Origin: an uncultured Alphaproteobacteria bacterium
Lineage (GTDB): Bacteria > Pseudomonadota > Alphaproteobacteria > CAAGCB01 > CAG-977
Reading direction: 5' to 3'
Assembly: GCA_937912005.1 (NCBI GenBank)
Contig: CALDOX010000015.1
Coordinates: 284,133-348,132 of the forward strand
Length of the DNA stretch: 64,000 nt
The translations under genes were made by a program, and so were the position numbers. Below the pieces are notes generated by a model. That model did not search any database. It saw only the letters and a program-made list of their open reading frames with translations, and was not told the origin of the DNA. Shown one piece after another: positions 47,595-54,618 of this stretch. Within the stretch, counting starts at the first letter, position 1. Every line of letters begins with the position of its first letter.

Positions 47595-48188
47595 TCAGCG
47601 TCCGGCCTGTTTCTGCATCAACTGGGCCACAGACACATTCAGCTTTTCGCGCGACTTGGCCGGACGTTTCCAGACCATATCGTCGCACCAAGGCAGTTTG
47701 ATTTTGATTCCCGCCGATAAATTCTGATTTTTCAGCTGCGGGTCTATGACCTCATGGTGCAGCTCGTCATGCGGTCGGATCGGCATAATGATCAGGTTCT
47801 TAAAATCATTTGTGCCGCCGCCATGAATCGGCAGCTTGTGATGCACATTATACCCGTTGACGCCGATTCCCTTGCGCATATTCGCTATCCCCGCATCGGA
47901 AATCCCCATCGCATGCAGTTCATCAACGAAATGTTCGGCCACATATTTTAAAAAAGCCGGGCGAACCTCTTTTTTAAATTGTTCGCGCATTGCTTCGCGC
48001 TCGCCTTTGGGGGGAGTTTTGAACTCGACCTCTTTCAGCTTAAAGCCGTTGATCACGTCAAAGTCAAATTGACCGCGCGCGGCGCGTTCCTTTTCGGGCG
48101 TATTCTTTTTCTGTCCGTTGTTATAACCGAACTGCGCCCCGTGACCGCCCCGACGTGCGCGCTTTGTATGTGTGTATTCTTTCACCAT
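47595..48188 (-). CDS. colicin-E/pyocin-S-type H-N-H DNase-domain protein, paralogue 1
   Basis: 'NGYNVHHKLPIHGGGTNDFKNLIIMPIRPHDELHH'. ATG 48188 has a GGAG SD. The track start is TTG 48206. Confidence 0.7.
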   Translation of the reverse strand: MVKEYTHTKRARRGGHGAQFGYNNGQKKNTPEKERAARGQFDFDVINGFKLKEVEFKTPPKGEREAMREQFKKEVRPAFLKYVAEHFVDELHAMGISDAGIANMRKGIGVNGYNVHHKLPIHGGGTNDFKNLIIMPIRPHDELHHEVIDPQLKNQNLSAGIKIKLPWCDDMVWKRPAKSREKLNVSVAQLMQKQAGR

Positions 48189-48276
48189 GGAAAACTCCAT
48201 AATCAATCAGGCATTAATTTTAAGGTTAAGCCTAACACACCTTTTTTGGCAAAGAAAGTCTTTTTTGTCTATTTTT

Positions 48277-48522
48277 TCAGATGGTGATTATCTTCACCTG
48301 AATACCGTCCACCTGTTCCAATTTAATTCGGAGCTCTTCGATTTTTTCCTGCGGCGCTTCCATAACAATAGAAATCAGATTCAACTGCTTTTGACGATGA
48401 GGCACTCCCATACGGGCAATAATACATTCACCGTACTGAGACAACAAATCATTGATTGAAGCTGCGGATTTTTCACGATGCGGCACAACGATGGCTATTT
48501 CCGCCAATTTTAATTCAGACAT
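48277..48522 (-). CDS. second TM1266-family small ACT/NikR-C-like protein
   Basis: 81 aa. 'IAIVVPHREKSAASINDLLSQYGECIIARMGVPH' parallels the hydG-linked copy at 22145-22387. Confidence 0.55.
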   Translation of the reverse strand: MSELKLAEIAIVVPHREKSAASINDLLSQYGECIIARMGVPHRQKQLNLISIVMEAPQEKIEELRIKLEQVDGIQVKIITI

Positions 48523-48594
48523 TATTACATCCTCCCGAAATTATTTTTTTCAAAATAAAAGAGTTTCGACTAAAAAGCAAACATCTCTTTAGGG

Positions 48595-49233
48595 TTATTT
48601 TTTATCTTGCCGTAATACCTTGTATTTTTCCAGCAGACGGGAAAAAGCCTCTGTCAATCCGGTCGCTATTTCCGGCTTTTCTCCCAAATAACTCAGGCAT
48701 TGCGCACAGGCTTCCAACGTAGAAACGCTTTCCCGTCTGGGTTCTTTGCGCAGCTTGCCGTATAAAGATCTTTTTTCGGGCACCAACAGCAGCCGCCGTG
48801 TTTTCAACAGCCACGGATTGCGCCACCACAAAGCTTTAGCCTGGCTCCATGATCCGTCCAACAAAATAATGCCTTCCAATTCCTGCAGGCACTGTTCTCT
48901 ATCCGCAGCCAACCCGCCTTTTTTATCCAGAACATAAAGCCCCGGAGCGACCGGCGTTTCCTTTTGAGCCCCCAAATACAATACGCCCCATTTTTTCGGA
49001 TCGGCCGGCCTTTTCAAAACAGCGGCCAAACTCGGACGGGACAAAGCGATTTCCAACCGGGAATTTTTCAGCATAGATTTCAAAATCCCCGCGGTTCCCA
49101 GCTCTTTATCCTGTTCCTGCGGATGCTGTAAAATCAACACGAAACGGCGGTTGTCAAAGGGCTCCGCGTCCGTGCAAACGCAGAGCCTTTTTTCTTTTCC
49201 GCATCTTTCACAAGTATCTGATTCTTTTGTCAA
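48595..49233 (-). CDS. DTW-domain protein (tRNA aminocarboxypropyltransferase family)
   Basis: N-terminal 'CERCGKEKRLCVC' and 'LLDGSWSQAKALW' (DTW/DGSW motif). Confidence 0.8.
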   Translation of the reverse strand: MTKESDTCERCGKEKRLCVCTDAEPFDNRRFVLILQHPQEQDKELGTAGILKSMLKNSRLEIALSRPSLAAVLKRPADPKKWGVLYLGAQKETPVAPGLYVLDKKGGLAADREQCLQELEGIILLDGSWSQAKALWWRNPWLLKTRRLLLVPEKRSLYGKLRKEPRRESVSTLEACAQCLSYLGEKPEIATGLTEAFSRLLEKYKVLRQDKK

Positions 49234-49445
49234 TGGACGCTCACCGGTATCAATTCGTTATCTATGACCAGAGATAAAGCCTTGTTTTCATCATCCGTAT
49301 AGGCCAACTCTGTTCCTTCAGCCGCATAGATAAACCACATTTTGCGGTGATCTACAATCTTTTGTTTGATATAAGCGACGGTATTTACGCCCAATTTGGC
49401 CAAATCATCGGCCGTTATGTCCTTTTTATCCATAGAAAACAGCAT
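49230..49445 (-). CDS. DUF1150-family small protein
   Basis: 'LGVNTVAYIKQ...WFIYAAEGTELAYTDD' pattern. AAGGAGG SD. Sits downstream of hsp20, as is typical in alphaproteobacteria. Confidence 0.7.
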   Translation of the reverse strand: MLFSMDKKDITADDLAKLGVNTVAYIKQKIVDHRKMWFIYAAEGTELAYTDDENKALSLVIDNELIPVSVH

Positions 49446-49468
49446 GACGACCTCCTTATTTATCGTAA

Positions 49469-52558: not shown

Positions 52559-52701
52559 TTTTTCCGAATACCTTTCTTTTTTTGCCAAAAAATTTATTTT
52601 TTGTCAAAACTCTTGTAGTCCGATTTTAATATGATATACTCTTTTTAAGGGAATATAAGCAAGCGTCTATTTTTGCCTTGCAAGGACGAAAGGATACTTT
52701 T

Positions 52702-53376
52702 ATGGAACCGTTGAAACTGGAACAAACCAAACGTTCCGACCGCTTTAGCCATAAAAAGCGTGATAATTCTCAAAATCGCGGCGCGGGTCCGAAGCGCCCG
52801 TCTTCCAAATTTCAGGAACAGCCGCAGCCGAAAGAATTTTTGGGGATTCCCTGCAAAAGAGTTACTTTTAAAGTCCCTCCGAAAGAGGAACGCGAAGCAA
52901 TGCGTTTGGAATTTGAAATGGGCAAACGCGCCGAATTTATTAAGTATCTGGCAGAGACGCAGCAGGAAGCTTTAAAACGTGCCGGCGTTACGGCCAAACA
53001 GCTGGAAGGCATGAAAAAAGGTTATACGCCGCACGGTTTCAATACGCATCACAAACAGCCGATTCATGGCGGCGGCACAAACGATTTTTCGAATCTGATT
53101 TTAATCCCTCGGGAACCATGGCACGATATGATGCACTATCATCTGATCAATCCGCAAACAAAAGGACTGCAGGAAGGAAATGAAAAACAAATTGTCATTC
53201 CCTATCCGGAAACCCCTGTTTTTGAACCGTCTCCTCAATATAAATTCCTGGAGAAATGGACGAAAAAAGGGCGTAAAACCTATGGCAAGAACAAAAACAC
53301 CTCCCTCAGAGATGTTGAAGACGAAGCCAAACGCAGAATTTTCTTGGCTCAGATAAATCGAAACTCGGGACGCTGA
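52702..53376 (+). CDS. colicin-E/pyocin-S-type H-N-H DNase-domain protein, paralogue 2
   Basis: 'KKGYTPHGFNTHHKQPIHGGGTNDFSNLILIPREPWHDMMH'. ATG 52702 has an AAAGGA SD. The track start is TTG 52678. Confidence 0.7.
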   Translation: MEPLKLEQTKRSDRFSHKKRDNSQNRGAGPKRPSSKFQEQPQPKEFLGIPCKRVTFKVPPKEEREAMRLEFEMGKRAEFIKYLAETQQEALKRAGVTAKQLEGMKKGYTPHGFNTHHKQPIHGGGTNDFSNLILIPREPWHDMMHYHLINPQTKGLQEGNEKQIVIPYPETPVFEPSPQYKFLEKWTKKGRKTYGKNKNTSLRDVEDEAKRRIFLAQINRNSGR

Positions 53377-53378
53377 AT

Positions 53379-53969
53379 ATGGCTGATTATATTCAACATA
53401 CGCTGACAAAAGCGGAAAAAGAAGCGCGGCGGGCAGAACGTCTGCGGCAGCAGGAACAGGAAAGACAAGCTAAAATCGCCGCCCTGCCTGACCGGGTTCA
53501 TGGCATTCCTGTTATGGAAGTATCTTACACGGCCGCCGACAAAAAGCATGTCAAAGAAATGCGGCATGAGTTTACGGGAATGCGCAGAGCCTTTTTAAAA
53601 GAATTGGCAGCCACACAAATCGATGCGCTTAAACAAATCGGTTTTTCAGACAATATGATCGCTCTTTTAGCCAAGGGAGAAGCTCCGAACGGATTTAACG
53701 TGCATCACAAAATGCCGTTGGCCGGCGGAGGAAAAAATGAATTTTCCAACTTCATTTTAATAAAAAACGATCCGTATCACACAGATATTCATAAAGTATC
53801 CGATCTTCAGATATCCGCAATGAATCCCGGAGAAACCAAAACCGTTAAAATTCCGATGCCGCAGGGAAGCATTTTTATTCCGCCCGAACAGCATCAAACC
53901 AGAACGCAAACGGCAATCAAATCGCCGGTTTCGACGGTTTTGCTGCAAAAAATGCAAAAAACGCGATAA
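53379..53969 (+). CDS. colicin-E/pyocin-S-type H-N-H DNase-domain protein, paralogue 3
   Basis: 'PNGFNVHHKMPLAGGGKNEFSNFILIKNDPYHTDIH'. Its ATG lies 2 nt after the paralogue 2 stop. Confidence 0.7.
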   Translation: MADYIQHTLTKAEKEARRAERLRQQEQERQAKIAALPDRVHGIPVMEVSYTAADKKHVKEMRHEFTGMRRAFLKELAATQIDALKQIGFSDNMIALLAKGEAPNGFNVHHKMPLAGGGKNEFSNFILIKNDPYHTDIHKVSDLQISAMNPGETKTVKIPMPQGSIFIPPEQHQTRTQTAIKSPVSTVLLQKMQKTR

Positions 53970-54042
53970 AAAAAATAGACAAAATTTTGTTTTTATGGCA
54001 AACTTTTTTTAATGAACGATTCTGTTAAGAAGGGTATCGATT

Positions 54043-54618
54043 ATGGATAAAGAAGATAAGTTTGTTCACGCAAAACGCAAAGGCAAAAAAGAAGGGAAGC
54101 CTAAAAAAACGCAGGAGCAGCTGAACGCCGCCCAAGGCAAATTTCCTTTTACGGAAATTAACGGCTTTAAATTAAAGGAAGTCGAATGGACCGTTCCCGA
54201 TCAGAAAACCCGTAAAAGACGCCGCAGCGCATTCAACAAAGTGCGCGAAGAATTTCTGCGTCACATCGGCGCGACAATGGAACCGGCTTTGCGCGACATG
54301 GGACTGACGGACAAACAAATCGAACAAGTCAAAAGAGGATCGGCGCCGAACGGCTATAACGTACATCACAAACTGCCCATTCACGGCGGCGGGCAAAATG
54401 TGTTTTCCAATCTGATCCTGATGCCGATCAAACCGCATGACGAATTACATCACATTGTTATGGATCCGCAGGTTGCGCAAATGCAAACCGGTGATTCTAA
54501 AAAGGTTGTCATTCCTTGGACGGATGACATGGTTTATGTTGATCCCGAACGCAAAAAATCTCAGCCGCAAAAAGCCGTTTTGGCGGCTAAAGTTATGGAA
54601 GCCCGTAGAGGACGATAA
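54043..54618 (+). CDS. colicin-E/pyocin-S-type H-N-H DNase-domain protein, paralogue 4
   Basis: 'PNGYNVHHKLPIHGGGQNVFSNLILMPIKPHDELHH'. It is closest to paralogue 1 (shared 'INGFKLKEVE' and 'DDMV'). Confidence 0.7.
   Translation: MDKEDKFVHAKRKGKKEGKPKKTQEQLNAAQGKFPFTEINGFKLKEVEWTVPDQKTRKRRRSAFNKVREEFLRHIGATMEPALRDMGLTDKQIEQVKRGSAPNGYNVHHKLPIHGGGQNVFSNLILMPIKPHDELHHIVMDPQVAQMQTGDSKKVVIPWTDDMVYVDPERKKSQPQKAVLAAKVMEARRGR

Follow-up and report, generated by a model that had tools for sequence, protein, structure and literature searches.

Four stand-alone predicted YhhZ-type HNH toxins and a conserved SUKH/YrhA-family gene in an uncultured gut alphaproteobacterial lineage

A 64,000-nt stretch of DNA (the window) from an uncultured Alphaproteobacteria bacterium (assembly GCA_937912005.1, contig CALDOX010000015.1, positions 284,133 to 348,132 of the forward strand) was analysed for four small HNH genes, designated copies A, B1, B2, and B3, and for a gene of the SUKH/YrhA immunity family situated beside copy A. 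By whole-domain match, the four proteins carry a predicted HNH (His-Me finger) toxin domain of approximately 135 aa, of the type present in Escherichia coli YhhZ. The reading favoured here, with a rough probability of 0.55, is that they are DNase toxins with one shared SUKH immunity protein and with termini that may serve as an export signal. As far as was found, this architecture represents a so far undescribed variant of the YhhZ/YrhA-type family.

Copy A (197 aa) was located at 47595..48188 on the minus strand, as indicated by its open reading frame (ORF), an identical 197-aa database protein (P0001), and public gene calls. Copies B1 (52702..53376; 224 aa), B2 (53379..53969; 196 aa, starting 2 bp past the stop codon of B1), and B3 (54043..54618; 191 aa), all on the plus strand, were each indicated by an ORF and a public gene call. 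These are the places and stop codons given by the initial annotation; the starts listed there for copies A and B1 (48206 and 52678) are upstream TTG codons, and were replaced by the likely ATG starts at 48188 and 52702. The four copies are paralogues, as had been stated, showing 33–48% identity over the aligned parts and pairwise BLASTP E values of 1e-25 to 1e-55. The HH pair, GGG (including the GG noted earlier), Asn residues, and distal His were present in all four copies in the alignment. HH, GGG, and N were invariant among 39 aligned family sequences; by residue, H116, H117, N127, and N131 were invariant, and H140 and H144 were at least 90% conserved. The window proteins are 191–224 aa long, with a pI of 9.7–10 and only about 35 aa before the toxin domain. 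No hydrophobic segment resembling a Sec signal or transmembrane helix was found in the four copies (maximum Kyte-Doolittle 19-residue window below 0.8), and Pfam and NCBIfam scans of them detected no trafficking or delivery domain (Hcp, PAAR, LXG, Rhs, or pre-toxin). These results agree with the earlier description of stand-alone toxin-type H-N-H proteins with neither signal peptide nor delivery domain, and no known architecture explains their delivery.

The YrhA-family call on the SUKH gene by NCBIfam led to a comparison with the yhhZ-yrhA pair of E. coli. The family alignment matched YhhZ residues 257–384 over 126 columns with an hhalign probability of 99.1% (E 4.5e-19). In a domain scan, YhhZ consisted of a T6SS_HCP domain followed by HNH. 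Jablonska et al. 2017 (PMC5714182) assigned YhhZ to His-Me finger group 32, whereas colicins and pyocins form a separate group, 18. In copy A, the toxin domain extends over residues ~38–176 (47661..48077, minus strand), as delimited by alignment with LXG, PAAR-like, PT-TG, and PT-HINT toxins and by hhalign to YhhZ, and the predicted secondary structure comprises a beta-hairpin, long helices, a beta-beta-alpha-metal core, and a final strand. The H-N-H core of copy A (residues 112–145; 47754..47855, minus strand; GYNVHHKLPIHGGGTNDFKNLIIMPIRPHDELHH) aligned also with Cas8f-HNH. A conserved extension of 55–75 aa had been described after the H-N-H; about 30 aa of it proved to be part of the toxin domain itself, and only the last 20–50 aa form a lineage-specific tail.

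Pfam HNH gave 13.5–18.9 bits, below the cut-off of 21.4, and a search of PDB sequences with the 39-member profile retrieved H-N-H cores only, with Cas8f-HNH at E 3e-4. Foldseek comparison of two AlphaFold2 models, full copy A (pLDDT 86) and the isolated domain (pLDDT 94.6), with PDB gave no match at E ≤0.001 for either. The 50 best matches were HNH cores, including those of Cas8-HNH, Gme nicking enzyme, Rhs2-CT, McrA, Cas9, and teneurin.

The initial annotation had placed the four proteins with the colicin/pyocin DNases, and several tests of this membership failed. With the Pfam model Col-Pyo_DNase (PF21431), copies A and B3 scored 17.3 and 14.5 bits, short of the cut-off of 27, and B1 and B2 had no match. 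Alignment by hhalign to the colicin E9 DNase (PDB 1bxi_B) covered 34 columns only (family 112–145, E9 98–132) with a probability of 29%; this core, the only stretch alignable with E9, showed 32% identity and one single-residue gap. The position-for-position match to E9 that had been claimed was thus recovered within the core, apart from the gap, and nothing was recovered beyond it. The resemblance of 'KKGYTPHGF' and the N-termini to the E9 DNase domain was not reproduced by any alignment. Pyocin AP41 appeared in the PDB profile search with E 0.11 over 37 residues, and neither the full nor the domain model had a colicin or pyocin fold, including that of E9/E7, among its 50 best Foldseek matches. 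The setting also differed, with SUKH rather than Im-type immunity and with no receptor/translocation domains or lysis gene found. The LexA box GTTC-N7-GTTC was not found upstream of the HNH genes, and its window-wide counts were at chance level. The DNases of colicins E9, E7, and E2 and of pyocins S2 and AP41 have in common with the window proteins the beta-beta-alpha-metal core and the matching HH, GG, Asn, and distal His positions; they are cytotoxic non-specific DNases, as the window proteins would be by analogy, but the rest of the domain is not alignable. Judged by these comparisons, the four proteins are not colicin/pyocin DNases. The idea of a toxin is supported and the colicin label was wrong, the predicted domain being of the YhhZ type.

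A profile search of 1.84 billion representative proteins retrieved 1134 relatives. Among 145 listed representatives, namely those not already recovered by an earlier homologue search, the domain was C-terminal in a long protein in 40 and part of a stand-alone protein shorter than 300 aa in 93. Pfam scans of ten long relatives detected LXG (two), Tox-PAAR-like (two), PT-TG (one), PT-HINT (one), and a Mu-portal fragment (one). The LXG, PAAR-like, PT-TG, and PT-HINT toxins matched the family profile at E 1e-25 to 1e-30. By their predicted domains, the long relatives have classic polymorphic-toxin architectures. Single polypeptides with two or three tandem HNH domains were also observed (P0155, P0187, P0115, P0121, and P0135), in which one HH site is intact and the others are degenerate (HY, GY, or RH).

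A gene encoding a SUKH/YrhA-family immunity-type protein of 146 aa lies 70 bp downstream of copy A (47084..47524, minus strand); neither this gene nor the conserved terminal motifs described below had been noticed in the initial annotation. The protein matched NCBIfam NF038335 (YrhA family) with 102.5 bits (cut-off 55, E 1.8e-29), was homologous to E. coli YrhA, and fell just under the threshold of Pfam SMI1_KNR4 (24.7 bits against 25.4, E 3.8e-5). SUKH proteins are known immunity proteins (PMC5714182). Members of the identical SUKH cluster adjoin the toxin domain in a 1411-aa Photobacterium protein and in a Sporolactobacillus LXG region. In the alphaproteobacterial metagenome-assembled genome (MAG) GWF2_58_20, two HNH genes are accompanied by one gene of the window SUKH cluster, and in an unassigned Gammaproteobacteria MAG a gene of this cluster lies next to an HNH-domain toxin. 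A more distant SUKH gene was located 3′ of an HNH pair at locus L071. In a distant relative, a prephenate dehydratase (PDT) gene is followed by HNH-HNH-SUKH in one operon, which indicates that several toxins per immunity gene is a recurring alphaproteobacterial pattern. On over 400 IncHI2 conjugative plasmids, too, a YrhA-family gene is situated 3′ of the toxin domain, the neighbourhood having been read in one example. This occurrence of SUKH/YrhA beside the toxin domain in several places indicates that the toxin-immunity relation recurs across phyla, and the gene neighbourhoods identify SUKH/YrhA as the usual predicted partner of the YhhZ-type toxin domain.

The SUKH gene was the most conserved gene of its neighbourhood. 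Its orthologues in L006–L024 showed 77–99% identity, compared with 74–85% for QueA and 77–92% for MucR in the same genomes. Such conservation is unusually strong for an immunity protein.

Both ends of the toxin domain carry conserved extensions in the family. The pattern [FYLIVMT]x[HY]x[KR][RKHPY] was found in the first 30 residues of 93 of the 102 family proteins, its core form being [YF]xHxKR, and a disordered basic stretch of about 25 residues follows it. The copy A motif is YTHTKR (48159..48176, minus strand), followed by a disordered stretch rich in Lys, Arg, and Gly, and residues 1–30 had pLDDT values of 45–57. In the alignment, the motif was not present in the polymorphic-toxin relatives. 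At the other end, copy A has a cationic tail (47598..47660, minus strand) that ends in ...AQLMQKQAGR, with pLDDT values of 54–67 over its last 20 residues. Arg was the last residue in 94 of the 102 family proteins (GR in 55) compared with 3.4% of neighbouring gene products, and the net charge of the last 20 aa averaged +4.1 in the family and +0.35 in the neighbours. The tail keeps the extreme C-terminus whether 20, 70–110, or ~300 residues separate it from the domain; in P0148, which has a hydrolase-like insertion of about 300 aa, it is still terminal and ends in '...NKLMKGRN'. A position fixed in this way despite insertions is as expected of a terminal signal. In the window and 70 related loci, the only other protein families with both terminal motifs were spurious ORFs. 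The termini behave like signals in these sequences, and one or both may be a candidate export or translocation signal. In substrates of the VirB/D4-type type IV secretion system (T4SS) of Agrobacterium, the signal is unstructured, positively charged, and located at the extreme C-terminus (PMC3297438). The tail has this character in general terms, with common charge and terminal position and no sequence homology; the T4SS is therefore considered a functional analogy only, and for the tail only.

The close relatives came nearly all from MAGs of uncultured Alphaproteobacteria of the gut and rumen, 'Acetobacter sp. CAG:977' among them, and 65 loci were taken into the clustering of neighbours. Three conserved loci were seen among the relatives, with about six paralogues and one SUKH gene. 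Locus A is arranged as DTW-(TM1266-like)-HNH-SUKH-QueA, locus B consists of three tandem HNH genes divergent from the PDT gene, and locus C, outside the window, contains two longer paralogues of ~250–285 aa. The closest MAG has all six copies inside ~25 kb; there, other genes fill the space after B3, and the third HNH locus begins about 8.6 kb past it. Each window copy had positional orthologues, with 48–69% identity within a group compared with 38–55% between groups, and those of B1 adjoin the PDT gene. Copy A was 55–86% identical to its counterparts at ten related loci, and B1–B3 were 47–87% identical (B3 alone, 61–87%) to those at nine related loci carrying the array. The divergence of the HNH copies was similar to that of the neighbouring PDT, YgjP, and AnmK. 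From this similarity and the positional orthologues, the family is judged old and maintained; the initial description as a maintained family holds, and its description as a diversifying one does not.

Two CAVCSV01 contigs labelled 'Limosilactobacillus gorillae' (L025 and L057) showed the alphaproteobacterial synteny PDT, OMP, TerC, DTW, HNH, SUKH, QueA, MucR, and are probably mis-binned or contaminating in that assembly. On a distant alphaproteobacterial contig (L072, 6750–8603), a 206-aa protein of no recognised family is encoded upstream of an HNH gene; its N-terminus is similarly basic, and its tail ends in ...AILDKMQYSK. A pentapeptide-repeat protein, possibly a DNA-mimic immunity protein, is encoded between the two. 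The 206-aa protein, with only two homologues, resembled a second stand-alone toxin.

A conserved promoter-like element, consisting of AATAGACAAAA, 12 nt, and TTTGCCAAA, was found upstream of copy A (48245..48273, minus strand) and also upstream of orthologues in other genomes. The AATAGACAAAA element was found again upstream of copy B3 (53974..53984, plus strand), where it is conserved upstream of the B3 orthologues. This exact 11-mer occurred only twice in 64 kb, at 48263–48273 (minus strand) and 53974–53984 (plus strand), each time shortly before an HNH gene. The 11-mer probably represents a −35 region with an A-tract, and a site for a shared regulator is possible. Its presence before A, B3, and the orthologues is consistent with ordinary, separately promoted expression. 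A terminator-like hairpin with a 12-bp stem and a T run, recognised by consensus match only, lies 19 bp past B3 (54637..54666, plus strand).

Compared with YhhZ/YrhA of E. coli, the window has the same whole toxin domain of ~130 aa and likewise a downstream gene of the SUKH/YrhA family. YhhZ differs in its N-terminal Hcp domain for delivery via type VI secretion (T6SS), instead of which the window proteins have a 35-aa basic N-terminus and the Arg-ended cationic tail; and several paralogues accompany one SUKH gene in the window, whereas the YhhZ/YrhA type forms one-to-one pairs. We take YhhZ and Hcp-ET1, the latter with its immunity protein, to be one family. Hcp-ET1, in which Hcp is fused to an HNH-DNase, degrades the DNA of target cells via T6SS delivery (review, PMC6099711). 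The polymorphic toxins (LXG with the type VII secretion system, Tox-PAAR-like with the T6SS, PT-TG, PT-HINT, and the Photobacterium protein) similarly have the domain at the C-terminus, followed by a SUKH gene. They are 500–1400 aa in length, possess trafficking and pre-toxin modules, end the domain with '...VYPP' in the alignment, and are typically strain-variable, whereas the window proteins consist of the domain alone, extended at both ends, and stand in core synteny. A 353-aa 'HNH endonuclease' and YrhA form a pair on IncHI2 plasmids, with the same toxin domain and immunity family and no recognised trafficking domain; this HNH protein differs in having an unannotated 220-aa N-terminal region, in ending right after the domain, and in being plasmid-borne and single-copy. 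Matches to the toxin domain were found on 433 conjugative plasmids, mostly of Enterobacter, Salmonella, and Klebsiella. In the Salmonella IncHI2 plasmid NC_021845.1 (L074, 5332–6909), the HNH-YrhA pair lies directly beside two transfer genes, which encode TrhH and a protein with a TraG N-terminal domain.

If the window proteins are DNase toxins, as we favour, catalysis would follow the usual H-N-H mechanism of the family, with one His of the invariant HH pair as general base and with the second, together with the distal His and Asn-positioned helix, holding a divalent metal, and it would result in non-specific, metal-dependent cleavage of DNA. Protection of the producer would come from the SUKH/YrhA protein, whose gene directly follows copy A. 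Because about six paralogues in the relatives occur with one very conserved SUKH gene, we infer a shared immunity protein. One SUKH protein would bind the nearly invariant active-site face of all paralogues, and binding of this kind would explain the extreme conservation of SUKH. The short N-terminal motif with its basic stretch, the Arg-ended tail, or both would be the signal by which a set of antibacterial effectors is exported or translocated.

A more far-reaching form of this proposal, which we regard as speculative and rather doubtful, is that the termini constitute a minimal trafficking module replacing Hcp, PAAR, LXG, and Rhs, by which an uncultured gut order exports about six DNase paralogues, possibly via a bacteria-killing T4SS, under the protection of one pan-immunity SUKH. 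We know of no bacteria-killing T4SS in Alphaproteobacteria. No T4SS genes were present among the genes identified in the window and the 10-kb flanks of the related loci, and nothing relevant on secretion systems was found in the literature on RF32, CAG-239, and 'Acetobacter sp. CAG' genomes.

Several observations weigh against exported toxins with a shared immunity protein. An adjacent SUKH gene is present for copy A and for none of B1, B2, and B3; of the six or so paralogues, five have no adjacent immunity gene. The HNH genes are old, syntenic, and core-like, unlike most polymorphic toxins, which are strain-variable. Pfam and PHROG scans of the 64-kb window detected neither a secretion system nor a lysis gene, and no structural module of a phage; its remaining genes are housekeeping genes (RpoN, Lpt, LigA, threonyl-tRNA synthetase/IF3, glycosyltransferases, and others), and the identified neighbours in the syntenic loci of relatives are likewise housekeeping genes. 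The distance of 2 bp between B1 and B2 also counts on this side, as do the multi-domain fusions elsewhere, where the pairing of active and degenerate sites is a hint that the proteins form a hetero-oligomeric enzyme and are not independent weapons.

Some of these observations would be accommodated if the DNases were never exported and formed an intracellular toxin/inhibitor system, in which SUKH holds them until phage, stress, or loss of SUKH releases them for abortive infection or programmed DNA degradation; the termini would then be used for DNA binding, degradation, or regulation. The lack of export machinery, both in the window and in those neighbours that were identified in relatives, the core-like and syntenic loci, and the single inhibitor gene for many nucleases are all in line with this explanation. 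Each unit, moreover, has its own strong-looking promoter-like element, and basic termini on proteins of such high pI suit DNA binding. We nevertheless consider it unlikely. PADLOC defence models did not match the four HNH proteins or SUKH, no trigger or sensor component was seen, and a tail bound to the extreme C-terminus resembles a signal more than a DNA-binding arm. Elsewhere, in contexts that can be interpreted, the domain serves as the warhead in secreted toxins of the Hcp, PAAR-like, LXG, or PT-HINT kind.

The fusions of active and degenerate HH sites, together with the 2-bp gap between B1 and B2, lead to another explanation, namely a domesticated hetero-oligomeric cellular nuclease, especially B1-B2-B3, with a housekeeping or DNA-processing role and SUKH as a regulatory subunit. 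The tandem arrays at the PDT gene are kept even in relatives reachable only by profile search, and SUKH is conserved above the neighbouring QueA and MucR, as might be expected of a cellular enzyme. All window copies, however, retain full catalytic motifs, and no genes for DNA repair or replication are linked to them. The form seen here is limited to one lineage, the family occurring otherwise in conflict systems, and the known function of SUKH proteins is immunity (PMC5714182). This explanation is accordingly judged improbable.

Minimal colicin- or pyocin-like bacteriocins, the reading nearest to that of the initial annotation, are very improbable; in these, the disordered N-terminus would be a short translocation region presenting an epitope that resembles a Ton or Tol box, with release through lysis and uptake into relatives. 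The H-N-H core alignable with colicin E9, the sub-threshold Col-Pyo_DNase match over 80 residues, and the conserved beta-strand-like motif near the N-terminus, followed by ~25 disordered residues, are compatible with such proteins; but the tests of colicin-family membership failed, the immunity gene is of the SUKH and not the Im type, and neither a lysis gene nor an alphaproteobacterial LexA box upstream was seen. Furthermore, SUKH is near-identical across the clade, so that relatives, the usual targets of bacteriocins, would be immune. The least credible alternative, HNH endonucleases of phage origin or of the homing type that do not act as toxins, is suggested by the plain name 'HNH endonuclease' given by NCBI to some relatives and by matches to two PHROG families with no assigned function (E down to 2e-16, for copy B2 against PHROG 31266), but no relative was found in IMG/VR viral contigs, phage genes are absent from the flanks of copy A, of the B array, and of the syntenic loci in relatives, the domain lies at the C-terminal end of the PHROG models as it does in toxins, and the SUKH partner points to a toxin.

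As both the toxin domain and the immunity family are already known from YhhZ/YrhA and the polymorphic toxins, the enzymology is probably ordinary. What may be new is the arrangement, with stand-alone paralogues kept in core synteny throughout an uncultured lineage of gut and rumen Alphaproteobacteria and one conserved immunity gene for all of them. If the termini are export signals, they would represent a small tag that is transferable and belongs to a so far undescribed route of effector delivery in common, unstudied gut bacteria, and the locus would also illustrate how a single immunity protein covers many toxins. Should there be no export, the toxin domain would have been co-opted for a cellular role.

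Other features of the window were also recorded. An ORF of 1183 aa at 36008–39559 had a weak match to a sulfatase domain, and a 200-aa phospholipase D-like (PLDc_2) protein encoded at 40088–40690 is kept in the same synteny block of relatives. The region after B3 (54700–64000) is a variable island, with GC content down to 0.34 at 58–62 kb. It contains genes for a LuxR-type solo regulator (54802–55032), a Fic/Doc-like protein (55088–56014), and an HNH fragment of 67 aa that is similar to the C-terminal end of a type II restriction enzyme (56084–56287), as well as glycosyltransferase and hexapeptide-transferase genes. A 302-aa ORF in the island (56687–57595) has the N-terminal domain of a phage T7-type tail fibre (phrog_1640, E 2e-38), and this fragment is the only phage-like piece in the window.

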